This document shows positions 13,198 through 55,978 of a stretch of 64,000 bases of DNA, piece by piece. Numbering within the stretch: position 1 is the first letter of the stretch; the number at the start of each line of letters is the position of its first letter. Source of the stretch: Spizellomyces punctatus DAOM BR117 (lineage: Eukaryota); the NCBI GenBank assembly GCA_000182565.2, contig KQ257453.1; one strand, given 5' to 3'. A program made the position numbers and the translations under genes. Under the pieces are notes generated by a model. It searched no databases. It was given only the letters and a program-made list of their open reading frames with translations, and was not told the DNA's origin.

Positions 13198-14107
13198 TCG
13201 ATTGGTAGGATGCGCCTATATTCAGATAAGGTAGGGGGGGAGGGGGGTATGAGGGATAATTTTTACTTCACTACTGGTGCTGTTTAGTGCGAATCCTTAG
13301 TTAACGGGAGGCCAGTGATATTTCCCGCACAGGGCTTATGTTTAGTTCTTCCCATTATGTATTTTGACAAGAGTTATAATCCAAACCATGCTGGTTGCAG
13401 TATGTCCGGTAGGATGCTGTGGCAACGATGTTTGTAATGCTTCATGTTTTCCAGCAGAAGTACAGCCGGGTAAGTGAGGTTGTCGATTAGAATTGGAATC
13501 TGCAACTACGTTTGTCCCGTAGCCAACTATGCGGTGCTGTTCGCGTTCCTCAATAGGTTCACTGATCCGCCAGAAACAGTAGATCGACCATTTCTTCCAG
13601 CATACGAAGATTTACCACTTTGCAGATACTAATTATAGTATTGAGTGTGCGTTTAGAATGAATGCGGCGCTCATGGTTAGCTTCCTCGAGTCCTTAATGA
13701 GAATTATCCTAACGTGTAATTCGTAGATACAAATGTCATGACGGGCAAGGTGTTTTACAGCACCACTCTTCGGTTTAAGACTACTGGAAACAGTCGGTTA
13801 TCACAGGCAATTCCTGCTAAATGCAGCAAAAGTGTTGATCTCTCAAAAGTATCAAACAACACAACAAGTTTAGAATGGGCTGTGATATCTTGAGTGCACG
13901 ATCGGCTTACCTAACGGATGAGTAATCAAGTTCACAATTTTTTTGGATTACGTCGCGTTCAACTGGCAGCTACCAACTCCGATATCTCCAAAGAATTGCT
14001 CACATTGGTTGGAACTGACTCTAGACGGCAGCACCAGAAGGTCCCAGTTGACGACAACATAATTACGAAGCGGCCCCTCCCGTCTACTGCTCTGCCAGAC
14101 AGTAATA

Positions 14108-17100
14108 ATGGGCAAACAGCGCCCACGTTACAATGAGAGGGCACGAGCTTCGTCTCACTTGGCAAAGACAGCCAAACCACATCCCCATGCTCGAGACGGA
14201 GGCTTGAAAAAGAAGCGAAAGAGTGCTACTGAACCCGCGGCGATATCTGAAGCGTCTAGCGTCACTCTCATAACAGAAACCTCTACTAGCAGTATCACAA
14301 ACGAAGACAATGTCGAGTATTCTGCCTCCAAGACGGACGTTCCTATTGTGCTCGTTCCAGGAGAGAAGGGGCCATCGGGAGAGGAAGACAAGAAAACACT
14401 AGACCTGAGCTTGCTAGAAGAGGAGCCAACCGGAAAATTAACGTCCAAAAAGCGAAAAAGATTGGAAAAGTTTATCGAGAAGCAATTGAAGAAGGAGGAG
14501 AGAGTAAAGCTACTGCAAAAGTTGAGCGAGCAAAGCTTTTCGTCGGAGCTTTTACGGTCGAGTAAGGCTCTAGGACAGAATGTAAGCTTGAAGCTCTTGG
14601 ATTGGTGTCTGAGGTTCAATGACGCAGTGACCAATATCTGACGTATTTACATGTTCATAACAGAAATTGACTGCTCGTGAAAAACTGCGGCAAGCGCTCC
14701 TAGAAGAGCGTGCTGGAATCTCTCGTTCGGATTTAGGGGTGCGCCTTCTCGTAGAAAAGGACTTTGACGATGAGGCGGATGCGGCATTGGACGGAGTAGC
14801 AGCAGATGTAGTAGATAGCAAGAAGGACACAGTCCTGGCTGTAAACGATAAAGCTAGCCACGGCCAGACAAGCGCGGTAGATGTCCCACTTGCCAGAGAA
14901 CAACCGGAACCGCTTGGAATAGTGTCGCGAGCGTTTGGAAAAGTCCCACCGGCACCAGCGTCCGTGGAAGTTTTTGAGGAATATGGAGGTGCTACGAAAA
15001 AAGATGAAGAAAATCCCTCCGCTGGATTTGGAGCTGCGCTGAAAAGTTCTCAAAGCACTGCCGTACTAAGCTTTGGAGCCGCATTGAAGAGAAAAGCTCC
15101 GGAAGATGGTGTAGAAGGTGAGCAACCTGAGCTGACGATACCCAAGCGGAAAAAGAAAAAGCAAAAGAAAAAAGCCGTGCCGGTCAATAAAGAGCCACAT
15201 GGTAGCGATTCGGAAGGCGAAGAAGTAAACCACACAGAGGAGGAAGGCGCTGGTGGTGCGAAAAAGGATATCTGGGCGGCAGACGTGGTGGTGGGCGAAC
15301 ATTTGAACTCTACAAAGTTGAATGGCTCAACACAAAAGCAGCCTATTAGTGCAACTACTTCCAACACCCCTAAAACAACCTCTAAGCAGCAAGAAGCACC
15401 AAACACTTCGTCCAAGCCAATATTTCATGTCCCGGTCGATCGCCCCGAGTCTGTACAGCTTACCCGTATCTCGCTTCCTGTTGTGATGGAGGAACAGCCT
15501 ATTATGGAAGCTATCCTTAACCATGACGTGACAATCCTCTGTGGTGAAACCGGTTCCGGAAAGACAACGCAAGTACCGCAATTTCTCTATGAAGCCGGGT
15601 TCGGTGACCCAACGCATCCACAATTCCCTGGCATGGTCGGTGTGACACAACCTCGGCGAGTAGCAGCTGTTTCAATGGCCCGGCGTGTTGCCGATGAGAT
15701 GGCCTTGAAGAATGGAGAAGTGGCTTATCAGATTCGATATGATAAAGGATCTACGGGTCGTAATACACGGATCAAGTTTATGACAGATGGTATCCTGCTA
15801 AGAGAGCTTAGTGTCGCTGCTGGAGGGGAAACACAATCTAAGAAGAAAGCGGCAGATGGACCAGCGGATCTCCTTCTATCAAAGTACTCGTGTATCATTA
15901 TTGATGAGGCCCACGAGCGAACAGTTGGGACGGATGTGCTGATAGGGTGGTTGACACGCATCGCTGCTCTACGAAATTCGGGGAAGGTGGCAGGTGTCAA
16001 GCCATTGAAACTAGTCATTATGTCTGCAACCCTTCGAGTCGAGGATTTTACCATGAATCAGACGTTGTTTGCAGCAAATGACAAACCACCCGTGGTAAAA
16101 GTGGATGGACGACAACACAAGGTATTGTCCTATTACATATTGACCCGCAAACCATTTTTTGCATGGGGCTGACGATTACCCCTACACCCCAGGTGGTGAT
16201 TCACTATAATAAACGTACCCCCGAACTCGATTATGTTACTGAAGCATTCAAAAAAGTTTCCAAAATCCATAATCAACTCCCACAAGGCGGCATTCTTGTC
16301 TTTTTAACCGGTCAACAAGAAATCCAAGTACTTGTCCGTAAATTACGAAAAGCATTTCCTCTCCATAAGCCAAAGGAGGTTGAACGAAATAGACTGGAGG
16401 AGACGTTCGCAGAGAAGGGTACCAAGGGAAATGCAAACATGTTTGATGAAGCGGATGGAGATGTAGACATGGAAACGGGGCCGGATGATTACAACGAAGG
16501 CGAGAGTGATGTCGAAAATATGGACGAGGATGACGAAGAAGAGGAGGTTGAAATTCTTGGGGGACTGAGTGATGACGAGAATGAACCTGAACCGCTCATT
16601 ACTCCAAGAAAGTTTGGGGAGCAAGCTGCACCATTGCATGTGTTACCCCTGTATTCACTGCTGCCAACGGCGGCTCAGATGAGAGTGTTTGAGGCACCCC
16701 CGGCTGGGTCGCGGCTTGTTGTTATTGCTACCAACGTCGCGGAAACGTCCTTAACCATTCCCGGAATCAAGTATGTAGTAGATTGTGGGAAAGTGAAAGA
16801 GGTAGGGCACACCCTCGGTTTGTAGTATGTGGGTTCACTTCTAATCTAATGGTGACTTTCAGCGCCGGTACGATGCAAATTCTGGAGTGCAAACATACCA
16901 AATATGTTGGACATCTCGTGCCTCAGCTGACCAAAGAGCTGGGCGAGCAGGACGTGTTGGCCCAGGCCATTGCTACCGTCTCTTCAGCTCGGCAGTCTTC
17001 AACGATTACTTTGAACAATTCTCTCAACCTGAAATCCTTCGGGTCCCAATTGAAGGCGTGGTCCTGCAAATGAAGAGCATGGGAATAAACAACGTCGTCG

Positions 17101-18828
17101 GTTTTCCTTTCCCGACCCCACCAGGCAAAGAGAATCTCAAGGCTGCTGAGAAGCTATTGTTGCATCTAGGAGCAGTTGACACTGACTCGAATATTTTAAA
17201 GATAACTGAACTTGGCAAATTGATGGCAAAGTTCCCAGTTTCGCCACGGTTCGCAAAGATGATCATTGTCGCTGCTTCTCAAACCGAGAATATCTTACCC
17301 TATGTCATCGCGATTGTGTCTGGGCTCTCCGTAGGTGACCCGTTCATCAGGGACGAGGATATTGTTGGGAAAGAGCAAGAAGAAAGCGATGAAGATGATG
17401 ACGATGCAGAGGAGGAGAAGGAACGCCGCTCAAAGAAACGATCTGCATTTTGGAAGACAATGGCAACATTTTCCGGGAACCCACCGACGTCTGACGCGCT
17501 TCGACTTCTCACTGCCATTGGTGCTCACACAGCCGAATATTCCCGATCCACCTCCCTCGCCGAAAAGTTTTGTGAAAAGCACTTTCTTCGTCCAAAGGCA
17601 ATGGACGAAATGCGTAAATTGCGCGGCCAATTGACCAATCTCGTCAAGATGGCTTTGGGGGATAATGGTCGTTACCCATCTGTGCGGGATTTATGTGTGG
17701 ATCCACGATTGCCGCCTCCTAATCCTCGACAGGCGGCTGCAATCCGACAGGTGTTATTGTCAGGATTTGCGGACAGGGTTGCTAGGCTTGACGATGAGGC
17801 CAGCAAGGGCTGGGGCGGCAAAAAGTGTGTTCCTGTGTACCGCACAATGTGGGGAGGAAAAAATGAGGTGTGCCAGATTCACCCATCAAGCTGTCTCCAT
17901 CGGGAACGGCCAGCGCCACGGTACGTGATTTACGACGAGCTTATTGGGAAGGAAGAGAAGATCTCTGCCGACAACGCCGGAGTGATTTCAATGCGTGCAA
18001 ATGCGAACGTGACAGCTCCGGACGGTACCTCAATCAAAAAGCATTGGTTGAAAGGCGTTTCCTCGATTGAAGATATATGGATATCCGTGGTGGCTCCTCG
18101 CCATCTTTGTCGAATGGGCAAGGTGATGGAGCAACCTGAGCCACGGTATGACGGTGCCATGGACAAAATTGTAGGATACTGTATTCCAAACTTTGGGCCA
18201 AAAATGTGGGATTTACCTCCTCGGGAAATGGAATTACCAAGGTTGGAGGACAGATGCAAGTGGTTTGCACGCAGCTTGATGGAGGGGAAGGTCGTCCTCA
18301 TGGAGCAAAAGGGGAAGAGTAAACGGAAGGGCAAGCGAATGAATGGGGGACAAGAAACAAGAGAAGTTTTTGCAAAACTGGCTCCATTTGTTACGACAAA
18401 GACTGTCACAATAACAAAGAGCTGGGGAAAGAGCCAAACGAAGGTTGGGAACTTGGTTGATACGATGGTGACGGCCGGTATTGATTCCAAAGCAAAGTTG
18501 ATTTCCCAATGGTACGTCCTTCACCTACTGTAGTTTCATGCATATTGTTTAGTTCTAACCCACCTCTACCCACAGGCGCCAAAACCGCACCTTTTTGCTG
18601 ACCCAATACCTTGCTTTCATCCCCGACGACTTTCATGCATGCCTTTCCCAAAATTGGCCACCTGCTGTCTTATACAACCGAGATGAGGACGACGCAGCTA
18701 GTGATGCCATTAGAATAGGCGAGTTGCTACGTGGGGTTGAAGAGATTTGTGCGGTTGCTAGAGGACGTAGGGATGAGAGAGATTTTGGGAGAGCCGAGAG
18801 TGAGAGTGAAGGAGATAGCGATTTTTAG
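14108..18828 (+). CDS. DHR1: DEAH-box RNA helicase DHX37/Dhr1 (Ecm16), 18S rRNA biogenesis
   Basis: GETGSGKT, TQPRRVAA, IIDEAHER, MSAT, ATNVAETSLTIPGI, QRAGRAGR; N-terminal MGKQRPRYN and KKRKRLEKFIE typical of Dhr1. Confidence 0.93.
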
Positions 18829-20238
18829 AATGGAAGTATTTATATGTGTATAGGTTGTATTTAGCATATAGCTTTTTCCTTAATTCTGATACATGATTGT
18901 CTGACAAACATCTCAGAAATTTCTGGCTAGGGATAATTCTTTTGTTTTTCTGGGGGGCTGTTTCTGCTGGCATAGAAGCCGTCAGGCAACTTTCTAGTTC
19001 AAATTCTCAAGCACTGTATTTTTGATTGAAAACGCTGCACAGCTGGCACCGACAGTTGCCGATAGGCGCCTGATCATATTGGCTTTTAGCTTCAAATGAA
19101 GGGTTAAAGGTTTGTGCATCAACTTAATGTTCAGAAAACATATTGTTTCATGTGTGGACAGAGAACCGTTTCTACGAAACACCCGAGAGCAAATGTTTTG
19201 CGTCCGTTACCGCTCAAAAATGTGAGGCCTGCCAACCCTTTGATCCAAATCCCATTACGTGTAAATAACGCTCCTGCTTCTCTTGCACGGGATATAAAGG
19301 GTTGTAGCAAGACCCGTTGTGTGGACAAGAAAGAGAGAATCACAAAACAGTTCCTTGACAAATGATCGTTTGTAGATATATTCCAAAAAGGAAGAACCCA
19401 AAAAGGCCTGCGAGGAACAGCTAGCGTAACATAGCATCTCCTTGTCAGACAAACGTAATCGCAGACTCTTTCCATGAACTTTGACATGCCTAGTACGTTA
19501 CAAGCATTCGCTTTACCAGTAAGACTTCAGGACGGATTTCACACCCTTGACCAAATTCTATGCAACTTATCAGGACGATGTGATACTCCTACGCAGGTGA
19601 TGCCGATCGCATGCTTTCTTTATCCTCAGAGAAAGTGCTTCGCTCTCTGTTGGGAGGCGGTTGCTCGAGACCATTGACAATAGGGCACATGGCCCACAGA
19701 GTGGAAAGCAGAAGACGTACTTGAGACTCTCAGGGTATCAGCTGAGGACAACAGGAATCAACGATATCAATCCATTGTTTGCTCAGAGGGTTTCCTCATT
19801 ACCTGATATGTTTTGATCGCTGCGAGGAGTTTGGATGTCAAGAGGGTAAGGCACCGTGGCCAAATGGATTTCTTGGTTGAAAACGTCCCAATTCGAAACA
19901 AAATGCGGGAAACAAAAGGCCATTGACTATCCATTTCAAAGAAGTATTTAAAGAACAAGCGCCGTCTGCATTAAGTACAAATTTATTGAAAATGCCAAGG
20001 ATGGAATTCTCGCGCTTCAAAAATACACATTCTCGGACCAACACGTATCCTCACCACACTTAAAGGTGCCCTCTGCATTCCCATTTCGTAAAGAAACGAG
20101 CCCCCGGCTTGGGACGGGTTCAGCTGCATTACACCTCCACCGTTGAGAGAAAACTCACAACGGCCAAAGTGCTCCCGAGAGTCGTTTTTGAACGCCCAAA
20201 AACGACTACCAATTCGATCGCCCAAACGTACAATGCAT

Positions 20239-20791
20239 GGCGCCACAGATTCGCCCAGCCGCTAGGCCACTGCGCTGTGAACTTGCTACCATATTGCACG
20301 ATTGAGTACCGAAGCCCCTCAGCGTGGCCCCACAGATTCGCCCAGCCGCTAGGCCACCGCGCTGTGTAGTTTCTACCACGTCCTCTTCGGGCGGGAATAC
20401 GGCGCCACAGATTCGCCCAGCCGCTAGGCCACTGCGCTGTGAACTTGCTACCATATTGCACGATTGAGTACCGAAGCCCCTCAGCGTGGCCCCACAGATT
20501 CGCCCAGCCGCTAGGCCACCGCGCTGTGTAGTTTCTACCACGTCCTCTTCGGGCGGGAATACGGCGCCACAGATTCGCCCAGCCGCTAGGCCACTGCGCT
20601 GTGAACTTGCTACCGTATCGCGCGAATGGGTGTCGATCCCCTCAGTGTGGCCCCACAGATTCGCCCAGCCGCTAGGCCAACGCGCTGTGTGGTTGCTACC
20701 ACCTTCGGGAATGACACCGGAATACGGCGCCACAGATTCGCCCAGCCGCTAGGCCACCGCGCTGTGTAGTTTCTACCACGTCCTCTTCGGG
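20239..20791. repeat. Array of 7 conserved ~37-50 bp cores separated by alternating linkers (162-bp higher-order unit)
   Basis: CCACAGATTCGCCCAGCCGCTAGGCCA(C/A)(T/C)GCGCTGTG starts at 20243, 20330, 20405, 20492, 20567, 20653, 20730; spacings 87/75/87/75/86/77. Confidence 0.97.
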
Positions 20792-20840
20792 AAGGAGACC
20801 ATACTTACCTGGAGGATGGAAAGTCGGGGGACTCCAACGA

Positions 20841-22394
20841 TCACGGCCCGAAGGGGTCCTCCGCTCCACGAGCAGCGCCTGGGCTTTCCGGTTGGCTAAC
20901 CTGAGAAAGCCAACCTTGAACCTTGGCGGTGGTATCGAGGACCGGATCTTTCCCTCCGGCGCCATGAAGCCGAGCCCTCTTGTGTCGGCGCTTGGATGAC
21001 CGCGCCGACCGCCCCGACCGCGACGACCTCTTGGACGATCTGTCGTCGTCCTCGCTCTCGTCATCCTCCCCTCCCTCCTCGGGATCAGGGCCGGGCATGT
21101 CGTCGCCATCAACATCGAGACCTTGCAGGTCTTGCCACTTGATGGGCGCCAGAAGGTCGAAGAGTCGTAACCCTTCCTCCCTCACGGCTACCATCAGAGA
21201 CATGAGACACAGCACGTCTCGACCATTAAGGATCGAGTAGTCTCCGACGTGATAGGCTATGTACTGCAGAAGAAGGCATTGGACGTTAATGCCGCACCGA
21301 ATCGAGTGGGGAAAGAGCACAGAACTTACCATGCCTGTGCCCCGAACCTTTTTGTACCCCATCACGTACAGGCTGAGGTGATACCCCACGAGGGTGGTAC
21401 CCACAACGGCAATATTCTGCCGCTCGAGCACCAATTCCCAAGCGTGCATGACAGCCCTAAGACCAGCAAGCAGCTGGTTCACGCACCCGAACTGCGCCGC
21501 TCTGTCCGATTTACGTTCTTGAACATAAAAGGGGAAGGGGACGCAGTCGGGATCGCCACATCGGGCTCGAAGCGGCAAAAGACTGTCGGCCAACAGCGTG
21601 TATGGGTTTTCTGGCTCCACAGGGGGGTCATCAGTACAATACCCAACGATGACGTCAGGTTTCGGCCTTGTAAGGCCAGCGATGCCCTCCGGCAAGGCCA
21701 GGATGTGGGTGTCCCTGTAGCAAGTTCAATGCGTGAATAACGGAAGCGACTCAATGCTAGAGTCAAAAGTTACTCACGACACATAAGCGAACACCTCGCC
21801 GTGATTCATCACGGACAAAAGGGCCGTCTTCAACGGCGCCCACTCGGCCTCGTGATTTCCTACAGCCGCCTGGATGAGCATCCTTATCACTCGTGCTCCA
21901 GTGAGGCTATTGACGTACCTTCGAGGCTGTCAGCTTTCCCGACCACCTGAAAAAGGTTGGCGCTAAGATGGTCTGAGACAACCGGGTTGTCTCCAAAATA
22001 CTCCGGCGCTTTCCTTTCCAGCTAAATGAATCAATCCCAAAGTGGTCAGGCGCAAGTCCATGAGAGCGCCAGATTGTAAGTGCTCGTTGTACTTACGTTA
22101 GGTCGGGAGCCAGCTCTCAACACTTGGCGTGGTGCCAAGAGCCGATTCACGAGAGCCTCCACAACGGGAGACGGGGCGAAAACCTTCTGATGAGCCGGCA
22201 AGTCGGCGGTGTCATTAAAAAACCCTCGGCACAGCCGCATGCCGTTGGTGTTGATCTGCCGCCGATACTTGCGGCTATTCTTGCTATCAAAACAAGACAT
22301 CATGCTTTAATGAACCAATTCAAAAGACGGCAACATTTTGCGGGAAATCTTACAAGGAGGCATTGGATTTGCTGGATTTCACAGAGTCAGACAT
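20841..22394 (-). CDS. PD-(D/E)XK (restriction-endonuclease fold)-like protein, six exons, ~400 aa
   Basis: ATG 22394; GT-AG introns at 22353-22284, 22096-22022, ~21918-21860, ~21777-21717 and 21329-21264 keep the frame. Motifs HEAEW, PKPDVIVGY, FPFYVQERKS, VNQL; acidic then Arg/Lys-rich tail; TATA-like TATAAAA near 22490. Confidence 0.7.
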
Positions 22395-23589
22395 CGCGAA
22401 TAAAAAACAATAAGATGCAAATGCTCTAAAGTTCTATGGGAAAATTCAGAGCAACGAACCGGGGGGGAGGCAGGAGGGGGCGTCTTTTATATTCGTGTAT
22501 ATTGATTAGATAATCTACTCCTTTCCAATACGCTGATTGGCTGCCACACAGCGGTGTCTCTGCGTGTCTCTGATTATGTGATCACTCATGGGGATTTGGA
22601 TTCCGCTCTAATAGCAGTTTATCATTCTGGATGCGAATCATCGGTAAATCATTGTTAAGTCTTAAAATGATAGATTTGGTATTGTGCTAAACGCCGTGGT
22701 AAAAGACCTTGTCGTCTTTAGGATGGACTTCCACTGTTGAACTTTTCATAGCTCTTGATGCGAATTATTTTTGGCATCTCTGATTATCCACTGCAACCAT
22801 GCGATGCACCCTGACCATGTCAGTCAACTCGACCACCAACAGCCCTCTCACGTTCGAGTCTTCCACGCCCAAACAGCGGGCGCCCACGAACAAAAGGTCT
22901 GTCCGATTCGCTTCACTCAGGACTGGATGATGCAATAGGCCTACAAGGAGATACTGCATCGTTCTCTATCGAGATGGTTAGAAAGGCTTCAAGGACTGGT
23001 AAAAAGCTTTCTTCGCTGTTGCTTCATGATGTGACACCACTATTCATACCACCGACTACTTCAAAGTGCTGCCAAGGTGAGGAGGAAGCCGATTTACTGC
23101 CAAGTTCCCTTTCTCCTTCTTGGGTAGCAAGGTACCCACCACGGACATCTAACATACTACTCCCATATCTCATTGCCAGATTTGTCGGACCCTTTCGGAT
23201 GTATTTGTGTACAGTGGGCACTCAACACTGGCTAAAGGGAGGGATGGAACAGAAGTACTTTTTGGAGAACCCGCTATGTGGACCTTCCAGTATGTACATA
23301 AGCAGTACCTTTTCAGCCTCGCCATGAGTCTTAGAGCCGCAGCGAGTTACTGTAAGAGTCATTTCAAACACAATTTTTTAACTTGCGCACCACGATAGTT
23401 TCTTCTACGACAATTCGCAGATTCAGAGGACCCATCATAACGAATATGCGGCAGGACCACTGTTCTGCCCCTTCGCGCTAAGCAACTCCCTATAAAGGTG
23501 CGCAACTTTCCGCCGAATGAACGTTCCTCTCAATACTTTTGCTCGTGCCCAGATCTGGCAAAGTAGCTGGACCGCAACTCGAACACAAT

Positions 23590-24383: not shown

Positions 24384-24454
24384 GCATTGGTGGTTTAGTG
24401 GCATAATTACCGCCTGCCACGCGGTAGACCCGAGTTCGATTCTCGGCCAATGCA
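24384..24454 (+). tRNA. tRNA-Gly (GCC), intronless
   Basis: GCATTGG/CCAATGC acceptor stem, ACCGC/GCGGT anticodon stem with CTGCCAC loop, CCGAG-TTCGATT-CTCGG T arm, oligo-T terminator ~24475. Confidence 0.97.
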
Positions 24455-24681: not shown

Positions 24682-27600
24682 TCAACCCCCACTCTCCACT
24701 CTGTGTGTAAGGGCATCAAAGCGTGCCATCCAAGCCCTCATATCCTCATCGGTTTCAGCCCTCAGTAAAAGTGTTCTTCGTGCTCCAGGGTATAACCGTA
24801 AGACGTGCTTTCTCTTGGTGTAATCCGTCGCGGGTATTGCCAGTCCTGACGATCTTGTCAAGGGAATAGTTTGAAAATGCGGGCGCATAGTTGGAGACTG
24901 ATAAAAAGTAAATATTAGCAGCTGTGGAGTTAGAAGAACATATTTAAATTCTAGGTACCTGACTATCTCCATTGCCGCTGATACTCGAGCGGCCAAGAAT
25001 CCTGCTGGTGCGCGCCAATCTTGAGGCGGTGGATCCGCTTCGACTCCTATTTCCTCCACCAAATAATGATGTGGAGGATACGGATGAACCCCCCATACTC
25101 CGCCATATACTTTTCTTCCTTGTTTCTTTCGCGTCGGGAGGACCGGGAGGAATGGTTGGGCTCATTGGGCTTACTGTCTCCGCGGCTTTGGGAGAGTCTT
25201 CTCCTGGTGTCATGGGCGGTGTCGTGCGAGGTGCAGGACCCACCACACTCTCACGAGCGCTATCGTCATCTCCCCCACTGCTACTAAATGCGCTTGCTTG
25301 ACTAGCCCTTCCTGCACGACTAGATCGTGAGAAACGACCCAATGTTATTGATTCTCGCTTTGTGCCGGCGGGTTCATTCGGATCATCAGAACCCCGCTCC
25401 CTTTCAAGGCCTTTTTCACATCGATAGAGTTCCAGTCGGGGCGGTTCAGCATAAAGGGCCGCCCAGACTTGCACCCACTTTCGAACAGGTGCTCGCAGAC
25501 CTGTCTCGAGGAGTTCATCTTTCTTGTAGAGCTGACCCTCGTAGACAGGAAGGGCGCCAGCGGCGTGGTCTTGAGAAACTTGTTCTAAAATTGTGGTGCC
25601 TGTCTCGTGCCCAATAGATGGACTGTCCTTGCTTCCCGGACTGTCAGTTTTCTCAAAGTTGGTAGGCGTTCGTGCATCAACGTGTATTGGGGAAGCCGGC
25701 GTTATCATGAATGCTGGTGGGGATGGGGAATGTGGGTAGGAAGCTGAGATGGCAGTGATAGTATCAATGTCAACCGAGAGCCGGTCGTCTGCAGCGTCAA
25801 CATTGTCGACATCGTCCATTAAAGAAGGCAACACGGTCACATAGGCTCCTTGGCTATCGGCATCGACACTGTCTGGCGAATTCATGTCAATGCTGCTCTC
25901 TGGTTTCTCCAGCACGGATCCCTGTTTCCACCTCTCTCTGTCATCAGATGTACCGGTAGATTGTTCATCAATACTTTGACGGTTCCATCGATCGATCCTG
26001 CTTGGTGTAGATTTTGAGCTACGGCCGCTCAGTGACCCGTCGGAATTTACCAATGCCCTTCCGGTCAGGCTTTCAATGACTGCATCACTACTAAACACCA
26101 CATCATCACTTCCTGCCACTCGCCTGCTCGCGCATTCCGAACTACCGGTATCGTTCCCATGTTCATCACGACCCTCTTCTTCGTTGAGCTCATCCCAATC
26201 TCGCGATACCAGAAAGTCTGATATTGATCCCGTCGAAACCCTCGATGGTAAAGAATTTTGATCTGGCTCAACGGCGTCCTCGTGCCTCCCGTAGAGCATG
26301 ACGGCCGATCCACTCTTTGTTCGACGATGACCTCTTGTGCCCGAAAGGGCACTTCGGGACGCCGGCATACCTGTGGTTCGCTCCCGACGAAGTCGGCGTG
26401 ACCCTAGGCTGGATGGTTTTGGGGCAAATTCACGTCGATTAAGCTGGACATCGGACGAGTTTGACAATGGGTTTGCGCTGGCGGTGCTGACTGATAGATT
26501 ATGTCTGTCCAGACCACTTGCGGTGCTTCCGCTCACCATTCGCTCGGTTTCAGCACCAATGTCGATGCTGAAGGCCCGTCGCCCGATCTTTTTGGACAGC
26601 GCTCCGCTGCCGTTTATTGCTGCCGTTGAGCCACCTATTTTGCCGGACCCGGCCAAGATGTCACCACTATTCGAGACCGATCCTTTACTCGTGTCCATGT
26701 CAAGCAAGCTCTGGGCAACAGGTGCAAACTTTCCAGATACACTGTGACCTCTGATCCTGCTCCGAATTCCCTGTTTCCCACCGGTAGGTCCCGTATTTGA
26801 TCCTTGCGGACTGGTGGCCACCGCCCCTCGTTTCTCCACCAGACAGCTCCGACGATAATGGTCCTCCTCTATCCAACTTCGGTAGTCGGGATGGAACTTG
26901 ACAGAGAGCACCGCCTCTTGAACGGCAGGAATAGGTTCGAAATTGTACACGCTTCCCTGCTGATAGCGAGCGATTTCGTCGAGAAGGGCATCAATCTGTA
27001 TGTACACATAAAATGGGTACACTTGCAAGAATAAACCGAGTTTCAGACCTAAATGTAACCTCTCACCTGCATCTGCCGATCTGCTGCCTGATTAGCGCGA
27101 CTAGGATCATTCTTTTCCTTCTTTAGACACTCGGACAGGAACGTTAGATCGCTCAACCATGTCCCTAAAGTATGGATGAGCATTGTAATGTCTCTCCATA
27201 AGCAACCTCAATCGTACCCAAATAAGGGACACAGGGCGGCTTGCACTCCGCTAATCGTCTCCTGTATGCTTCGCTGTTACTGAGAGGTGACATTAGATCA
27301 CACATTTTATCAAATGTGGACCTCTGCCGGCGCCCTACAATCTGATTCCAGTATCTTAATCGGATATAGAGTAATGGCGGCGGTCGTTCTTTCCAGGCTT
27401 ACCCCCCATGTTCTCGTCAATCGGTGCACCGGAGCCGATTGCAATCCCGCCGTAATACTTCGTAGTCCGTTGAAGTTGTTGATCTCCATCGAACACTGTA
27501 TAACGGTAAATAACACATGTTTTCTCCTTTCTTGAAACATCAAAGGGAGCGTCTCACCTTGGCCACGCTAATAAAGTGAATCAGCAGGTTATATCGTCGT

Positions 27601-29046
27601 TGAATCTCTTCTGAGGCAACAATCTCTTCCGCAACCCATAATGCGACCTAATAATTGCGTTTTTTTGCGAGACATTCAACTTTCCTGAACATGCTGCGGC
27701 GATAGGGTCGCGAACGATACCTGATTGAAATGCTGCGTCGTTGCGGCAATAGCAGGTGCTCGAGTGTACTTTTCCGAACCTGTCCACGCTACAGAAGCCA
27801 GCTCCTCTCGAGGAATTGATCGGAAGTAATTGCTGTCCATGAGCGCCAACTGGCGCTGCTCAGAAAATCACATTATTTGCGGTGAGATTCTTGACATCCA
27901 AAGATTGCTCGAATATGGTCATACATACAGCAAGTTCTTTTGGCGCCACATCTAGAATGTCAAATACTGGCCCGTCGTACTTGCTAACCCCGGATGGCTA
28001 CGGAATATGCTAGCCATCAGCCCTCGGAGCACAAGTCTCACCAAAATTCGAAATTTCCAAACTTTTAATCCTACCGTTCTAATATGCCGTATCGCTTTAT
28101 CTTTTATCAATGAGCTTGTTGATGCGATTGTGGCAGGAATCTTTGCAGCTTTTGCACTAGATATACTGGCCAAACTTTGCAAAGACATTCGAACCCCCTC
28201 CCCTGGTAATCGACGTTTCGGCTGCGCTGTCCATGCACTAAGGTTTCCTGCGCTTGGACTCGCGTACATTGATGATCTTTGCCGTTTTCCAACGTCTGGA
28301 GGTGACATATCTTCTACGCTACGCCCAAAGGAGCTATCTACAGATGCCCGGCGAGGGATGAGATCCTCATCGTCATCAAACTCGTCATTGCCATTTGCCA
28401 TTGCGGTTATGGAAGGACTAGATGCTCGCCGTGAGTTAGACATACACAATGTTGGGGTTGACGGTGATAGATGCTTTTGGTTCTCCCATTCCCTGGATTG
28501 CTGTGGGACGATAGGCTTATGTGGGGTTCCACTTCGTTGACTTTTCCCAGAATTTATAGAAGGCATGCTTTCATCCCTACATTTTCCCCCGCTGAACGCA
28601 AGGTTCCCGTCCGAAAAGTAGTCCCCAAGTCCATCTAGTGATTGCGCGACATTGTCAACGGACTCTGCAGTGATCGATTGACTTAGTGAGCGCGGCAGCT
28701 CGGTCGCCAGCCGCGCAACTCGAAATGGAGGCAAGGAAGGGCCCGTCCATGCACGCGGACGCGCGGATAAGGGAGCAGAGGTTGGTGATCTGACAGGGGC
28801 GTCATCGTACGAACCTCGTGGGGACCGGTATGAATGGAGAAGTCGTTGAGTTCCCGTTGGCAAGGGAGCTAATGGAGGGCGTGCGGTGGTGAGCTCGGTA
28901 CTTTCAGATGCGGTGGGGGATGTGGTAAGGTTACTCTCGTCAGTCGCCTGGCGCGATCCACTGCGAGATCCAATTGAAAGGGTGCGGCGTTTGATGGATA
29001 AAGGAGGAGGAAGCGGCGGTGCCTTACTGTCCATTAAAATTGTCAT
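24682..29046 (-). CDS. RasGEF (CDC25) domain protein with C-terminal PH domain (RalGPS-like architecture)
   Basis: INNFNGLRSITAGLQSAPVHRLTRTW, PCVPYL and WLSDLTFL in the GEF domain; PH elements YEGQLYKK..RKWVQVWAAL and YTKRKHVLRL..LLRAETDEDMRAWM. Confidence 0.85.
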
Positions 29047-29975
29047 ATTCTATGAATCATCAGGATACATGTAAGGCAATATGAGACGGCATATCTCTTC
29101 TTTACTGACCTAGTCATGTCGCGCCAGACAGTGTCCCAGCGAATCGTAACGCGGAAGCCCGCAGCAGCGAAGAAAGAAAGAGCTTCAGCCAATATGAGAG
29201 AGAGTATCTGCTGTTTGCGCCGGCTTCTCATCCAAGATTTCATTCAGCAAATTCAGGTGCTCTCCTGCGGTGTGCTGCATCAAGCCGTCGACAACGCTAC
29301 TCAACCCCGCCTTGGGATGCTCTCCAAGTCGGGAGGATTACATAATCAAACCGACCCAGGAATTCGGTTGAGTAAACCAGAATTAACAAGGCGCTTTTGC
29401 AGGCAGTTGCCATTTATCTCCGTCGATGACTTCTGGCATATTAAAGTGTCGTTTCCGCTGGAGGTTGGATTTTGCAAATGTATGGATGTTAGAAGCATAT
29501 TTAGATGGATGCGAAACTGGAGAAGCTGCGATGTTGGCAACGACAGTCAAAAGATCCATTGGCAAGCACATAGCTTCAAAGGACAGACTTGCAATAACAT
29601 GTTTCTCAAAAAGGCTGCGGTAAAACTCTTCATATTGCCATCCTTCATCGTCGGGATAAGCTGTCAAAAAGCCTTGATGATGGAGCGTGACGTGACGGGG
29701 AAAAAATCCGCAGGTGGAAAAACAGGCGTCACGATCTTATCCCACCCCTCGACGTTCGTTTAATAAATGATGCGATTGCTACGTTTTAGTTTATTGCAAA
29801 ATGATGTATTCTTGTAGTCAGCGCTTTCGCTGTCACTTTACAGCTATGGGCCAGTCTCCCCTGACTTTACCTCCAGGTCTATATAAAGGGTGAGAATCAC
29901 TTCTCCCCTCCTCGCAGTATTCAAGCTTCAAACTTTCGACTTTTTGCTTTACAATCTAACTCATTCTCACGAATC

Positions 29976-45632: not shown

Positions 45633-48004
45633 ATGAACGGCACAATGTCAGCAGATCTTGTTGGTTCCCTCCTGTCGTCATTGTCGCTGCAAGGGGATGC
45701 CGATGGCCTCATCCCGCACTGTCCTTACGACTTTATAATTGCCGTTGACTTGGAAGCAACTTGCGACGAGAACCATGCTGACCCTAGTGCGGTGCAAGTT
45801 CCAAGGGATAAAGGGGAAATTATTGAACTATCGTATGCCGTCGTGTCGGTACCTGAGCGGAGAATAGTGCACCAAAGGCAAAACTTTGTGAGGCCAGTTG
45901 AGACGACCGTGACGGCCTATTGCACCCAACTAACAGGGATCACGCCTGAGCTGGTTGAAAACGCTGGTATACACTTTGAATTCTTAGTTGTCGCGTGTAC
46001 AAGAAATTAAGAAATTCACATTGATCATGTAGGAACCTTACGCGAGGCCGTCGAAGATCTTCTCTCCTTCATTCAAACAAACCCTCAAAGCACCTTCTGC
46101 TTCATGGCCCATGGCGAATGGGATTTCCGATTTCAACTTCCGCGGGAATGTCAGGAAAAGGCCATACCTCTTCCGCCACTCTTTAGCGTCTTTTTTGACA
46201 TCACCAAAGAGGTTCATCGTATGATCACTCTCTCTGCCGGCGTTCCACGACCAGCAAGTACTGCATCTCTCCTGAGCCTCTGCAAAGCGATGGGCCTACA
46301 ACATGAAGGACGGTTGCATAGTGGGCTGGATGATGCGGTGACGGTGGCGAGGTTGGCGATTATATTATTGCAAAGGGTACACACGTGGTTTGCTGAAAAA
46401 GGGGATGGGGCATTACCGCCTGGATTGGAGTTACCCTTGTCGATACCCATTGATCTCGGGCAGGAGATTGAGGACTTTGCGGTGGCACGATCTAGGGTTG
46501 TGCGGCTGGGTGGAGTGCCTTTCAAGGCGACACAAACGTGAGTACCTGTGGCGGCAGCACTTTCAGAGTCGTTGAAGTAGGCTGCTAACTTTTTCGCATC
46601 ATTGGACATCAAGCCAGGTATTGACATTCATTGGAGAAAGTGGTGTGGCCCCAGAATCTATGTGGATGATCAAGAATGCCGAGGGTCGATCCGACGGACG
46701 AGGATTGGTTGTGCTACATACCCATGAAGACGCAATGGCGGCATTGAGCTTGAATGGACGTGTTATGGGGGATCGCGTTGTTCAAGTCACGCCTGGTAGT
46801 GAGGTAGATCTGGAAGAGACTGCAGCGGTTCGCGGCCCCTTCTTGGTGAGTATTGTTATCATGTGAGATGCGCAGGGTGCTTTGTAATTAACTGCCTCTT
46901 GCCAGACTGATCTGGAAGCCCAGCAAGCCACACCATCTCAAGAAGTGAAGCCGGGAGACTGGTTATGTCCTACTTGCCAGTTCCACAATTTTGCGAGGTA
47001 AGTGAAGAAGAGACTGTGCGTGGTCACATTTGGATTGTTGACTGAGCGGATACCCCAACAGTCGCCGAAGCTGTTCCAAATGCCATGCAGTCAATCCATC
47101 TCCAACCCCATACGTGTCCAACCAGCCATTAAAGCCAGGTGACTGGATATGCCAAGACCCGACCTGCACATTCCAAAACTTTGCATCTAGAATGCTCTGC
47201 ATGCGGTGCCGCGGTCCTCGACCAGCGGGCATGGAATTGGCGCGTCCGAATGGGATGAACGGAACACTGGGCATTTCCTTCTTGACACCAGACGGAACAC
47301 CAGTCCAACAAAGGCCACAAGAAGTGCGACCCGGAGACTGGTTCTGTCCCAACTGCCAGTTTCACAATTTTGCCAGTCGACGCAACTGCGTCAAGTGCAG
47401 CTTGACTGTCACGCTTCCTGCACCTCCAAGATCGTTTGCTCCCAACAAGCCCGGCGATTGGGCATGCCCTAACCCCGCTTGTGGATTCCACAACTTTCAA
47501 TATCGAAATGAATGCAAAGTATGCCAAACAGTCAAACCAGCTGGAATGGAGTACCACCCTGCGATGCATATGCAGGGAGCCCGCCAGCAGCTTTCACGAC
47601 CAATGGAATTGCGCCCAGGCGACTGGCTCTGTCCCCACTGCCAAACACACAATTTCGCAAGTCGCCGTGCGTGCATGAAGTGTAATGCCTCTATGCATGT
47701 AAACGGCGGTATGGTCCGGCCGCACCACCACAAACCTAGCTCCAAAAACAACCTCCGACCCGGCGACTGGCTCTGTCCTGACCCTACCTGTGCATTCTGG
47801 AACTTTAAATCCAAAACAGCTTGCACCAGATGCGGACGGGCTAGTATTGGGGCACAGATTGTACCTGAAGGTTACAATGGCGGGACATTTGGTGCCAGGA
47901 GAGATGGGGATTGGGATTGTCCGATTCAAGAGTGTGCGTTTCACAATTTTCGGTCGAGGACCGAGTGCCACCGATGTGGGGCGATGAAGCCTGTAGAGGA
48001 GTGA
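45633..48004 (+). CDS. Nrp1/Dri1-like RNA-binding protein: DEDDh exonuclease + RRM + seven RanBP2-type zinc fingers
   Basis: VDLEATC, HGEWD, HSGLDDA (ERI1-like); RRM RLGGVPF..GRGLVVL..LNGRVMGDRVVQV; seven GDWxC..C..NF..R..C..C fingers. Confidence 0.88.
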
Positions 48005-50570: not shown

Positions 50571-51182
50571 GTTCAACGACGAGTTACGGCTGGGCATCGC
50601 CATCCCCCTGCATCGGGATCTCGTCTTGTCATTTGCCATATGTCAAACACACATACACACACACACATTTGGCATGGCATTATTGGAACACTTCTACTGC
50701 GCACTTGCATCGCCCTTTCAAAGATCCGCTACTTGCATGGAATGAGTGGCACAGTCATGGGGCGCTGTTTCACGGTGGGCAGTGCAAAATCCACAAACAT
50801 GACGCAACCTGCATGCCACGTGGAAATGTTGATCATGTCATGTGAGTAGCATAGGCTATCAGATGATATGAGTGGCTGTGTACTCTCTTAAATCTAAAAA
50901 GTGTGAAAACCGAGTTCTTGGAATGGAACAACTTGACCGTTTTTTTATGCCGCCCTTCAGTCGAATTTATCTAAAAACTTTCCTGTTTTGGATGTCAAAG
51001 TTATGACTCTTCTCCGGACATTTGGTCAAACTTTTTGTCGTTTTTGCCTTGAGGTGTGACTTTCTTGCTAGGGCTATCTTTGCGGGGTCATTTCGCTTTT
51101 GCCCAATTTTCATCTCGCTTGCTGAACTCGATAAAGAGCAACAGGAGCGAGCGAGAGAGCTTGCAAACAACGCCTAGAAACA

Positions 51183-53468
51183 ATGACCACAGAACCTGTC
51201 ACAAGACAAAAGAGGCCGTCCATTGTCCGGCGATTGTTGACTCGGCGCTCGTCGTCGCGGTTGCAGAGAGAACACAACACAACGGCGCCAGTAACACCTC
51301 TTCTTCCTTCCGCAATCACGGTTCCAACATCTCCTTTACCAACACCGCCACCACCAGAACACTTGGAGCACTTTAACCTCGCATCCTCCTTTTCCTCGTC
51401 GTCTTCTTCCTTGTCCTCTTCCTCCTCGTCGTCCGCGTCACCATATACTTGTTCAAATATAGCAACTCCACCGCCGCCACCACCTCCTTGCACACCGCAA
51501 GACACGCCTCCTTCGTCACCTCCATTGCCCTCTCATATTGCAACCGTCTTGTTTCGTCGTCTGTCGTCCATTGCACGTCGCCGGCGGTCCGAGGAACACG
51601 ATGAAGAATGTATGGCCAAAACCCTGGGTCTTGCTGAATCCTTCTTGTTTGGCAAAGATGGGGAAGATGTGGATGAAAAGAGAGCTGTAAAGTTGCTCAA
51701 GAGCATCCTAGATAGCAAATCAGCCTCCACTTGCCGCGGAAAGTCCTATGTCGAGGCTCAAGCCATTTTGGCCTTTTGCTATGAATTTGGACTAGGCATA
51801 CCGCAAGACTTTGTGTTGTGCGAGCAACTGTACATGGCTGCAGCCAATAGTGCAAATGGTCTTGCTGGAGCTCGGCTTGCGTTTCTTCGTCGTTACGGAC
51901 GGCCGTCTGTGAAAATTGATCGCGTTGAAGCAGAGGAGTGGGTTCAGAGAGTCACTGAATTGGGTCCCGATGCTATATCTTGGCTAGTCCGAGCCGCTGC
52001 CGTTTATGGTCATCCCGCCGCTAATTATGCATTAGGTGTGTGTTATCATGACGGCGTTGGCGTGCAGAAAAGTGCCGAACAAGCAGTGTATTACTACAAA
52101 AGAGCGGCTGCTGCAGGACAGCCTCGTGGAGAAGGCATCCTCGGATACTGCTACGGCGAAGGATTTGGAGTGGAAAAGGATGACAAAATGGCCTTTGCAT
52201 TATACCTGCGTGCCGCACGGCAGGGTGAATCTGTTTCCATGTACAATGTTGCTCATTCCTATGAAGAAGGTGTTGGTGTGGCCAAGAATCTCCAAGAAGC
52301 CGTGAAATGGTACACCCGATCGGCTGAACTCGGTAATTGCTATGCGCAAAACAGCTTGGGCTACATGTACGAAGAGGGTCTTGGCGTTGAACGGGACGAA
52401 GTGGCTGCTGTCCGATGGTATACTCTATCCGCAGAACAAGGGTATCCTTGGGCGCAATGCAATCTTGGCTATTGTCTTCAAAATGGCATCGGTATACGCA
52501 AGGATGAGGCGAAAGGTGCCTTTTGGTATCACGCCGCTGCCCGTCAAGGCCATTCCCGTGCACAACACAATCTTGGACATGCGTACCAATACGGTATCGG
52601 TGTTGAAAAGGACGAAAAAGAGGCGGTTGAATGGTACCGCCGCTCAGCACGGGCTGGTAATGCATTTGCACTCCATTCCCTGGGTTACTGTTGTCAATAT
52701 GGTATCGGAACGCCGGTGGACGAATCCCGCGCTCTCGATCTCTACAAGCAAAGTTCAAAGCTGGGACATGCTCCGGCACAGTTGAGCTTGGGCCGATGTT
52801 ATCTTAATGGTGTTGGTTTGCCTTCACCAGATGAGAGGAGAGCTTTCAAATGGATCAGGAGGAGCGCGATCCGTGGAAACGATTTAGCGCAAAATACACT
52901 AGGGCACTTGTATGAAGAGGGTGTAGGAGTCCGGCCCAGTGTCAAAGACGCTGTGCGGTGGTATGTCGCCAGCGCAAGGCAAGGCAACGTCTGTGCGCTG
53001 ACAAACCTCTCCTTTCTCTATTTGGATGGCCTATCATCAACACCCTCATCTCTATCTTCCTCCCTTTCGCCATCTTCGTCGGCTACCCGTGCTGAAGCTT
53101 TGCGGCTTCTTCGGCTGGCAGCCACTGAAGGGCAACCGCGCGCACAGACGCGTTTGGCTCACATTCTCCTCAAAGGCGATCTTCTCCCCTTGAATCCCTC
53201 CGAAGCCGTCATGTGGTACGAACTGGCCGCATTGAATGGTTGGATACCCGCCATGACTCATCTCGCTCACTGCCTGGAGATGGGCATGGGTTGCTCGGTG
53301 GATGTGCCGGGAGCTGTAGAATGGTATGCAAAGGCGGCTGGATATGGGGATGCATGGGCGGCACAACGATTGGTTGTGCTTTTAGTTCATGGCTCACGTG
53401 GGGTGGGTGGAGAGGAGATGGAAGAGCGAGCGTCACTGGGCTACGGCGTGGTGGCGCCAGCTGCATAA
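51183..53468 (+). CDS. Sel1-like repeat (SLR) protein, single exon
   Basis: Many A.x.LG.xY..G.GV.KD...A..WY..AA..G repeats in a 761-aa ORF. Confidence 0.92.
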   Translation: MTTEPVTRQKRPSIVRRLLTRRSSSRLQREHNTTAPVTPLLPSAITVPTSPLPTPPPPEHLEHFNLASSFSSSSSSLSSSSSSSASPYTCSNIATPPPPPPPCTPQDTPPSSPPLPSHIATVLFRRLSSIARRRRSEEHDEECMAKTLGLAESFLFGKDGEDVDEKRAVKLLKSILDSKSASTCRGKSYVEAQAILAFCYEFGLGIPQDFVLCEQLYMAAANSANGLAGARLAFLRRYGRPSVKIDRVEAEEWVQRVTELGPDAISWLVRAAAVYGHPAANYALGVCYHDGVGVQKSAEQAVYYYKRAAAAGQPRGEGILGYCYGEGFGVEKDDKMAFALYLRAARQGESVSMYNVAHSYEEGVGVAKNLQEAVKWYTRSAELGNCYAQNSLGYMYEEGLGVERDEVAAVRWYTLSAEQGYPWAQCNLGYCLQNGIGIRKDEAKGAFWYHAAARQGHSRAQHNLGHAYQYGIGVEKDEKEAVEWYRRSARAGNAFALHSLGYCCQYGIGTPVDESRALDLYKQSSKLGHAPAQLSLGRCYLNGVGLPSPDERRAFKWIRRSAIRGNDLAQNTLGHLYEEGVGVRPSVKDAVRWYVASARQGNVCALTNLSFLYLDGLSSTPSSLSSSLSPSSSATRAEALRLLRLAATEGQPRAQTRLAHILLKGDLLPLNPSEAVMWYELAALNGWIPAMTHLAHCLEMGMGCSVDVPGAVEWYAKAAGYGDAWAAQRLVVLLVHGSRGVGGEEMEERASLGYGVVAPAA

Positions 53469-54416: not shown

Positions 54417-55487
54417 TTAGTCACTTGCAGACATGTGGATGGAGCAAGCAGGGGACGGGAATTGTTCCGGCTTGGCGTCTGTATCGGGCTTTATGGCAGA
54501 CAGGCACACACCTCGTTTTTTCCCTGGTGTGACCTTCACAATGACCACATCATCAACATCTCCAGTTTCTTTGATCGCCAACCATTTCCTCGGCCGAGCT
54601 GCCGCCTTCCCGCGGGACACTCTGACAAATATCCCATTCTCATCCTTTCCCTGCTTCGCCTCCTCTGATGGAAGTTGCATGTCCTTTTTGCCTGGTGATA
54701 GTCGAACTTTTTCAAGCCTCGACGCCTCGCTCTCCAATGTCTTATGAGGGGTAGTCAAAAGATCAAGATCAGCGTTCAGATCCAGATCCGCCAGGACACT
54801 TGCCACCCTTGATCTCACAGGCGTCGCTAAAGCGTTGATGGCAAGGGAGGGTGTGCCACGTCTTGGCACTCTCGATGCTGTCTTGTGCCCTTTGAGTAGT
54901 CTTCCCGTAGGTTTCAAGGTACGAAAAGGTGTGCACGGTGCGGTGCTCGGGTGTTGGGGAAGAAGATTATCAAACGCCTCGTCGTCATACAGGAGCTTCT
55001 GCGCGGCTTTATCATCTGCAGGGAGCGTGTAAATCCGCGCAACTATGGGTCCACATTTTGTCTTTTTGACCGAGGTCATTGCACAGTCGTCTAATATGGT
55101 CTTCCTTTTGCGCGACATATGCCTTGCAGCAACCTGGACCCGCGCCGGAGTCTCGAACGCACGGTCGGTGTCCAAGCCTGTATCGTCTGAACGCAGCTCT
55201 GCGTCCTCACTTTGATAGAATACTTTCCCAAAAACGTGGACCCCATGGTTTCGTACCCAACCTTTATCCACCACAATTTCCTCTTTTTCCAAGTCAATTT
55301 CGTCGGCATCGTGGAACTCCTGTCCGTACTTCTCGTATATGCTTTCCCAAGCCATCTTCAAACGCAGCTGAGATTGCAAGCGCTGATGAGCCACATCGCC
55401 ATATTGGACTGGGGTCGAAGGACATATTGACTGAATAGAAGCCAGAGAAAAGAAACCTGAGAAAGTCGGTGTCGGTTCGCTTGCCAT
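54417..55487 (-). CDS. Scm3/HJURP-domain protein (CENP-A chaperone-like)
   Basis: RLQSQLRLKMAWESIYEKYGQEFHDADEIDLEKEEIVVDKGWVR matches the Scm3 CENP-A-binding domain consensus. Confidence 0.8.
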   Translation of the reverse strand: MASEPTPTFSGFFSLASIQSICPSTPVQYGDVAHQRLQSQLRLKMAWESIYEKYGQEFHDADEIDLEKEEIVVDKGWVRNHGVHVFGKVFYQSEDAELRSDDTGLDTDRAFETPARVQVAARHMSRKRKTILDDCAMTSVKKTKCGPIVARIYTLPADDKAAQKLLYDDEAFDNLLPQHPSTAPCTPFRTLKPTGRLLKGHKTASRVPRRGTPSLAINALATPVRSRVASVLADLDLNADLDLLTTPHKTLESEASRLEKVRLSPGKKDMQLPSEEAKQGKDENGIFVRVSRGKAAARPRKWLAIKETGDVDDVVIVKVTPGKKRGVCLSAIKPDTDAKPEQFPSPACSIHMSASD

Positions 55488-55978
55488 CTCCAACTGGCCA
55501 ATTCCAAATTGCTGACGCGGAAGGCAATTTGAGATGCAGTCACGTGTCTACATGCGTTTGTACGACATGCGCTTCAGCAGTCTACAACTAGTATCGAATA
55601 TATGATGGGACAGATAACGGGTAGACAGCAGAAACACAGCAGCGCATGCGTTAAACCAGGTTTGATGTCATGGCCACACCGCCGTAGCAATTGCTATGAA
55701 ATAGTGCATTGAATGAATGCAACCACAACGAACCCACAATGGAAGTAATTACAACTAAATTAAATTCAAACGGCTGTGTTAACCGCTGTGTGGTGTCCCA
55801 TCACATACTCGATAGGAGTTGTATGACAACCCTGAGCTTCAAACCTTGATACATGCAACGATGCGCTGCAGAATTCCAAAAGAATAATAGGGTAGTTCGT
55901 TTGCAAGGAGGAGGGTGTGATGTCGTGTATATTTAACAGTTGCCAGGGGAAAATGAATAAGCACGCTCAGGTTCTACT

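Follow-up and report, generated by a model that had tools for sequence, protein, structure and literature searches.

Modules in which a nuclease gene is joined to an RNA array are almost all prokaryotic, and a locus of this layout in a culturable fungus raises the question of whether eukaryotes use structured RNA antidotes and of what a natural twister ribozyme does in an mRNA. The locus lies in a 64,000-nucleotide stretch of contig KQ257453.1 of the soil chytrid Spizellomyces punctatus DAOM BR117 (assembly GCA_000182565.2), hereafter called the window, and both the nuclease-like gene, SPPG_02614, and the cassette that follows it are on the minus strand. Reading along that strand, the stop codon (20841) is followed by a U1-type splice donor (20811-20801), an array of seven hairpin units, two further hairpins, a predicted twister ribozyme (20135-20065) and an AATAAA hexamer (19987). 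An original prediction, made from the sequence of this locus, had described the gene and the array as a candidate nuclease and RNA-array module; the U1-type donor and the twister were absent from it. The explanation that we favour, and to which we give an even chance of being right, is that of a self-cleaving RNA cassette restraining the nuclease, in which the array is a multivalent protein-binding RNA that acts like an antidote. The elements of the locus are as follows.

22485..22545, minus strand: CCAAT-like and TATA-like elements read from the sequence upstream of the start codon, a candidate RNA polymerase II (Pol II) promoter.
20841..22394, minus strand: SPPG_02614 (P0002), 406 aa, six exons (22394-22354, 22283-22097, 22021-21919, 21859-21778, 21714-21330, 21263-20841).
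20801..20811, minus strand: U1-type 5′ splice-donor site of 11 nt, 30 nt past the stop codon.
20227..20790, minus strand: array of seven irregular hairpins.
20777-20726, 20700-20649, 20614-20563, 20539-20488, 20452-20401, 20377-20326 and 20290-20239, minus strand: the invariant cores of the array.
20615..20725, minus strand: unit 2 with linkers B′ and A′, whose pairing lengthens the hairpin to ~95 nt.
20207-20180 and 20163-20140, minus strand: two strong hairpins between array and ribozyme.
20065..20135, minus strand: predicted type-P1 twister ribozyme (Rfam RF03160) with a P5 hairpin and no P3.
19982..19987, minus strand: AATAAA poly(A)-signal-like hexamer, 78 nt beyond the ribozyme.

The seven array copies described in the original prediction were all recovered, with starts at 20239, 20326, 20401, 20488, 20563, 20649 and 20726, as was the succession of linkers (A, B, A, B, A′, B′, then a last, incomplete B). 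The units are spaced by 87, 75, 87, 75, 86 and 77 nt. Tandem Repeats Finder reported the array with a period of 162 and 3.3 copies, and the units located 3′ of A′ are exact 162-nt duplicates. There is no eighth copy of the core in the 64 kb, the next-best ungapped match having 22 mismatches in 48 positions, and a covariance model of the unit scored the seven units at 85-94 bits and four other matches in the window at 12 bits or less. Exact core patterns gave no match in metagenome, viral and prokaryote contigs, and none of the 284, 105 and 52 pattern matches obtained in three protein-led locus scans was confirmed. No Rfam family matches the unit.

On the minus strand, the unit consists of a UAGC apical loop, short stems, a 3-nt AAU bulge, the CACAG/CUGUG stem, a 5-nt AG(C/A)AA bulge and a closing stem, and the variable closing stems are made from the linkers. 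The self-complementarity that had been noticed in the core holds for the hairpin unit; the GCC-GCTA-GGC hairpin proposed with it is the antisense of the RNA, because the transcribed strand is the minus strand. The folded unit comprises ~58 nt or more, takes in the ends of the linkers and extends further than had been thought. The fold is weaker on the plus strand (−186 kcal/mol) than on the minus strand (−237 kcal/mol). A common fold of the units by RNAalifold contains 21 pairs, 4 of them with changes on both sides, and the compensatory pair 22-62 holds in 6/7 units. The pair is broken in unit 1 (20777-20726), which joins a B-type 5′ half to an A-type 3′ half; this hybrid make-up suggests recombination within the core.

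The linkers were compared as potential pairing arms. The B′/A′ duplex reaches −27.2 kcal/mol, versus −9.9 kcal/mol for B with A′, and 0/1000 shuffles were as good. For the pairing of A′ with B and that of A with the unique 3′ flank after the last unit, 5/1000 and 3/1000 shuffles, respectively, were as good. The linkers thus form the base of each hairpin; this accounts for the alternation of A and B and rules out free spacers. The array structure is under selection, and the A′ and B′ linkers co-vary to pair.

The array is also present behind a second gene of the family. P0005 of Spizellomyces 'palustris' is 55.7% identical to SPPG_02614, and it is testable for the array because its gene model, which runs on into the 3′ region, reads into it. 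Residues 394-499 of P0005 match translations of the array, with exact runs of up to 24 aa, and the tail of the protein is a translated array with four cores and A′- and B′-type linkers. Exact matches of at least 5 aa cover 92/131 residues of the tail versus 78/375 residues of the coding part, and the two reading frames of the tail fix 33/35 invariant core bases. Conservation between the two species is far higher in the array than in the protein. Both the coupling of gene and array and the constraint on the cores, as originally suggested, are supported by these data, and the array, going by sequence, travels with the gene family across species. The array is transcribed on the strand of the gene, and a plain minisatellite, which had been kept as a caveat, is unlikely.

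The six-exon gene is intact as described, its translation being identical to P0002 letter for letter, and the nuclease-like motifs reported in it are present as PKPD (D158) and QERK (E204, K206). The protein has a restriction-endonuclease (PD-(D/E)XK)-type fold over approximately residues 1-315, followed by acidic, Arg/Ser-rich basic and conserved C-terminal segments; the basic stretch may resemble a nuclear localization signal. Pfam hmmscan gave no match on SPPG_02614, and the best Pfam match in the family, DUF7924, was below detection (E 0.065, in 2/7 members). ESM Atlas features (0.93-0.95) group SPPG_02614 with fungal clusters that include PDDEXK_12 and DUF7924. In structure comparisons with predicted models on both sides, the Atlas model of SPPG_02614 (predicted template-modelling score, pTM, 0.62) aligned with DUF7924 at template-modelling (TM) scores of 0.54 by query and 0.70 by target, and with PDDEXK_12 at 0.55/0.57. 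As modelled, SPPG_02614 has the restriction-endonuclease fold that defines the PD-(D/E)XK superfamily, on the evidence of both the Atlas features and the predicted structure. A sequence search for a relative of solved structure found none (best E 1.2). D158 and E204 are invariant in 5/5 aligned proteins and K206 is retained in 2/5; a putative active site is supported by the motif and the remote fold.

Relatives of SPPG_02614 are scarce: 1453 candidates yielded 4 proteins and 1.84 billion representatives yielded 5, and the close ones turned up only in Spizellomycetales. S. punctatus and S. 'palustris' have two full copies each, and a 31%-identical relative is found in Phlyctochytrium. A third S. 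punctatus copy, the last that was found in this species, is the truncated P0006 (SPPG_01199), an open frame of 117 aa that retains only the tail with its acidic, Arg-rich and C-terminal segments. P0008 is a weak lead only (E 4.9e-4), and a search started from P0007 gave no additional relatives.

Two elements of the cassette would act on the mRNA. The U1-type 11-mer occurs once in the 64 kb, both strands counted, and matches the donor consensus at 11/11 positions, versus 6-8/11 at the five real donors of the gene; the consensus may not be that of the S. punctatus U1. No splice joint or loose end was seen at 20808, where the exon-side depth (<1) is too low to exclude one. In Toxoplasma, a U1 site adjacent to the stop codon leads to gene silencing and has been exploited as a knock-down tool (PMC4474610). 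Past the array, the region 20136-20240 with the two strong hairpins folds with z = −3.32, and 0/200 shuffles were as good. With RF03160, the predicted twister that follows scored 37.2 bits, with E values of 1.4e-5 in a search of 5 kb and 1.8e-4 in one of 64 kb. The alignment spans model positions 1-68 with the pairs intact; P3 is missing, and a 20-nt insertion forms P5. P1, the U-A site, P2, P4, the L4 loop, both pseudoknot strands and the GAGGG strand with the catalytic G could all be placed, and the cut is predicted between U20131 and A20130. The features given as essential for twisters are the stems P1, P2 and P4 and the U-A site (PMC5408937). The biological role of twisters is described as largely unknown in a work that treats those of rice (PMC10226581). 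The AATAAA hexamer at 19982..19987 is the sole minus-strand copy between 19700 and 20900.

To follow transcription, four of the eight listed sequencing runs were mapped onto 20563-22600, a range that comprises the gene and 3/7 units and ends before the twister. Runs X3 and X4 are one sample, resemble unspliced DNA and are uninformative on expression. In run X1, a root metagenome RNA, a 284-nt contig is nearly identical to exons 1-3 with introns 1 and 2 spliced, which indicates that the gene is expressed in an environmental sample. In run X6, 98 of 26.4 million records mapped to the range, and intron 5 was spliced in 4 reads; no splice joints of introns 3 and 4 were listed in the mapped reads. 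Four array bins, covering three units, had a depth of 3.2-11.7 on the minus strand and 0 on the plus strand. The array RNA is assigned to the minus strand because its orientation equals that of the reads spliced at intron 5. The depth of the gene body was 0.07-3.7, and array core depth is inflated by reads from other units and loci; at positions specific for linker A′, 1-4 reads were found, near the gene-body level. Pile-ups of read ends, as expected for discrete 75/87-nt RNAs, were not seen in X6, the depth being low and the library not established as small-RNA. Small-RNA data for S. punctatus are publicly available (BioProject PRJNA982412; PMC10432273). A contig of run X4 at 20574-20679 carries a further A-type linker variant, and X6 has loose ends at 20625 and 20776 with low agreement (0.6) that are possibly technical; both observations point to other array loci in the genome.

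According to the favoured explanation, one Pol II transcript would span gene, array and ribozyme, and the twister would cut at 20131/20130, taking off the poly(A) end. U1 bound in the last exon would suppress polyadenylation or export, so that little translatable mRNA would be made by default. The two strong hairpins would shield the cut end, so that the RNA left over would carry the protein-binding hairpin seven times. Its likeliest ligand would be the nuclease itself, perhaps via the Arg-rich tail, and the RNA would in that case serve as an antidote or a feedback brake. The mode of action would resemble that of a type III toxin-antitoxin pair, with eukaryotic components unrelated to those of that system. 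A ribozyme located 5′ of the poly(A) signal and a U1 site by the stop codon would both lower the level of normal mRNA, and their presence behind a restriction-fold gene fits a product that needs to be held down. In Crinkler-type proteins, toxicity is ascribed to restriction-endonuclease domains (PMC5289972). An invariant bulged apex carried on variable stems and repeated seven times fits a multivalent protein-binding RNA. A more specific version, which we regard as possible but doubtful, is that of a released antidote ribonucleoprotein: the twister and, at 20808, either U1 or the first spliceosomal step would free the array, the units would neutralise or direct the enzyme, and truncated copies would act as RNA-only donors.

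Several observations weigh against a self-cleaving brake with an antidote-like array. The ribozyme score of 37.2 bits is below the Rfam gathering score of 67.2, and fungal twister candidates are reported to be inactive in vitro (PMC11662667). Spliced mRNA reads are present (depth 0.07-3.7), so that any brake would be leaky, and array-specific positions, with their 1-4 reads, gave no sign of array RNA accumulating beyond the mRNA level. Read depth drops to 0.15-0.66 within exon 6, towards its 3′ end, the continuity of one transcript is not provable by short reads, and the array reads may originate from other units or loci. With regard to the structure, the covariation control on 6 distinct units was not significant (30/500 shuffles, 504/5040 permutations), single units are not more stable than shuffles (z from +0.5 to −1.0), and forcing all seven hairpins costs 31 kcal/mol relative to the free fold. 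Two of the five cognate arm pairs fail versus shuffles, B/A with 138/1000 and A/B with 54/1000. The coupling of gene and array is seen in P0005, the one of six homologues in which the array could be compared. Finally, the AlphaFold2 models are of low confidence (predicted local distance difference test, pLDDT, 32 and 31, from alignments of 7 and 5 sequences), and the catalytic Lys is replaced by Arg in P0004 and P0005 and by Asn in P0007.

Instead of serving the nuclease, the array could be an independent noncoding RNA, released from a 3′-terminal intron (donor 20808) or transcribed by RNA polymerase III from A and B boxes, with the gene as its host and a host protein as its ligand. The gene would then be a host of the kind known for small nucleolar RNA (snoRNA) clusters. 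The donor is stronger than the real donors of the gene, the truncated paralogue P0006 exists, and the CUGA opposite GAAG in the B-type stems would allow tandem G·A pairs or a kink-turn. However, box C is unmatched, the Rfam snoRNA-type match of the array is at chance level (E 2.5), inspection by eye gave no convincing branch site or acceptor, and no joint or loose end was seen at the donor, though at a depth too low to exclude it. As to polymerase III, unit 2 with A′ is one of only two A+B box pairs with tRNA spacing in the 64 kb, the other being tRNA-Gly, and the first T5 run lies just past the array. The A box (20679) and the B box (20638) are 41 nt apart, the A box being present in 7/7 cores and the B box in 1/6 linkers. 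Against this, the B box may be accounted for by its pairing with B′, unit 2 favours the hairpin over a cloverleaf by 4 kcal/mol, and ARAGORN, silent at default and at 90%, made a call at 80% that is one of 40 in the window. Taken together, such a hosted RNA is unlikely. An origin as selfish DNA, in which the array would be the end of a mobile element or a minisatellite homogenised by gene conversion, the nuclease its endonuclease and the ribozyme a relic of RNA-based copying, appears improbable. The locus does form a GC-rich block (array 0.62, gene 0.56, window 0.48) and contains the exact 162-nt duplicates 3′ of A′; but retro-copying is hard to reconcile with the five introns of the gene, a scan of 27 open reading frames turned up no family of reverse transcriptases or transposases, and the window has no convincing terminal inverted repeats between 19 and 24 kb. 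Furthermore, S. punctatus yielded only three copies of the protein, and the array outlasts the protein in conservation between species, with linkers that co-vary.

The remaining two explanations assign an activity of their own to the units. An invariant bulged core within variable stems is the usual mark of a catalytic or ligand-binding RNA, and the array adjoins a twister; new ribozyme classes have turned up near known ones. Each unit, or each A/B pair, might itself be a self-cleaving ribozyme, of a class not yet described, by which the array would be cut into monomers. We consider this highly improbable, as inspection by eye gave no pseudoknot, there is no pile-up of read ends (at low depth) and no Rfam family matches. 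Small ribozyme classes carry one or two pseudoknots (PMC10226581). The least probable explanation is an RNA-guided nuclease of a CRISPR-, TIGR- or OMEGA-like kind, in which units would be processed and linkers would guide the enzyme to its targets. Nuclease and array share one strand, A, A′ and a variant contig diverge over some 11-14 nt at the centre of the A-type linkers, and S. punctatus has Fanzor, an RNA-guided nuclease with ghost RNA loci (PMC10432273). This parallel with RNA-guided systems, also drawn in the original prediction, was not supported: the linkers recur within the array and across the two species and are mostly paired, closing the units. Elsewhere in the window, the linkers match over 10 nt at most, a length reached by 60-88/100 shuffles, and neither array nor twister had a match in 50,697 phage records, so that nothing beyond chance was found in window or phage. 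No Nop, Cas or TnpB family was detected on SPPG_02614.

Other readings of the unit were tried and rejected. A tRNA gene was discarded, as there was no ARAGORN call at default or 90%, no Rfam tRNA match and no cloverleaf with an anticodon arm. In a box C/D snoRNA cluster, CUGA as box D and a terminal stem would be accounted for, whereas box C (RUGAUGA) is matched at no more than 5 of its 7 positions. The unit is not a pre-microRNA either, with z no better than −1.0 and large bulges, and hepatitis delta virus (HDV)-like, hairpin, pistol and twister-sister ribozymes gave no fit by eye against their consensuses and no match in Rfam. The B-type closing stems (20700-20640, 20545-20480 and 20383-20318, minus strand) have CUGA opposite GAAG, possible tandem G·A pairs, and for units 4 and 6 a kink-turn whose bulge is 3 nt long can be traced. 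The A-type bulge region is complementary to the 3′ end of intron 4 (21717-21733) over 12 exact nt and at 15/17 positions, and 0/292 overlapping control windows reach 12 nt; the comparison is post hoc, and as intron 4 is not retained in X6 the match is given as a side note only.

In the neighbourhood, a DHX37-like DEAH helicase gene (~14000-18830, plus strand) converges on the cassette, and a tRNA-Gly(GCC) gene is located at 24384-24454 (plus strand). Two long open frames without Pfam match lie at 24944-27091 (minus strand, 715 aa) and 27952-29049 (minus strand, 365 aa). Farther away are a RanBP zinc-finger array (47042-48004, plus strand), a Sel1-repeat protein (51135-53468, plus strand) and the Scm3 centromere protein (54417-55547, minus strand).

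Compared with known systems, the locus is similar to CRISPR-Cas and to TIGR-Tas in having an effector gene beside a repeat array. In contrast to the unique spacers of CRISPR-Cas, the linkers here recur, are shared with another species and pair as stems, and no Cas family was found on P0002 by Pfam or Atlas, NCBIfam and PADLOC lying outside the scan. TIGR-Tas is described as having a Nop-domain protein and units of 36 nt that carry box C/D motifs and two variable spacers (PMC12045711), whereas no Nop domain was found here by Pfam or Atlas, the units are of 75-87 nt with recurring linkers, and CUGA occurs in A-type linkers only. The type III toxin-antitoxin systems (ToxIN, AbiQ, CptIN, TenpIN; PMC5086642) likewise combine a nuclease gene with tandem structured non-spacer RNA repeats on one strand. 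According to the same source, their array is upstream of the toxin with a terminator in between, whereas here it is downstream without terminator. Further differences are the intron-containing eukaryotic gene, hairpins in place of pseudoknots, the presence of a ribozyme and a U1 site, and structural neighbours that are restriction-endonuclease-type only and not ToxN-type endoribonucleases. The nearest fungal analogue is rfk-1, the poison gene of Neurospora Spore killer-2, in which a seven-repeat element tunes expression (bioRxiv 2020.12.30.424869); both are fungal genes with about seven tandem transcript repeats, which affect expression in rfk-1 and would do so here. The repeats of rfk-1 are of 46-48 nt, lie in intron 1 and suffice as one copy, the antidote is a protein, and the part of that report available to us describes no ribozyme or nuclease fold.

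The ribozyme of the cassette has all consensus elements of type-P1 twisters (RF03160) in place and departs from them by the absence of P3, the P5 insertion and the sub-threshold score; it also differs in its setting, being placed downstream of an array at the 3′ end of a fungal nuclease gene that is spliced. Rodent Clec2 genes carry a hammerhead self-cleaving ribozyme in the 3′ untranslated region (UTR) of their mRNA. That ribozyme is similarly placed between stop codon and poly(A) signal, where it would remove the tail; it belongs to another class, and the fungal locus has in addition a perfect U1 site and a seven-unit array behind a nuclease. With DUF7924 (PF25545) and PDDEXK_12 (PF20516), SPPG_02614 shares the predicted fold and the PKPD...FPF..ExK..Q layout, although it is below Pfam detection. 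To our knowledge, no RNA has been associated with either family. Literature searches for twisters or other ribozymes in Spizellomyces and for twisters in fungal UTRs found nothing on such a cassette, most subscription journals being outside their coverage. The architecture lacks defining features of every family that was compared, and it is a real, conserved and undescribed nuclease-RNA cassette, the mechanism of which we infer; an RNA family without Rfam match, a twister and a U1 site are combined in it within a compact region. If the cassette were only a cis-acting 3′ UTR brake, it would fall among the ribozyme-containing 3′ UTRs, whereas release of the array as an antidote would mean that a protein-RNA toxin-antidote ribonucleoprotein has evolved independently in fungi and that a twister has a natural job in it.

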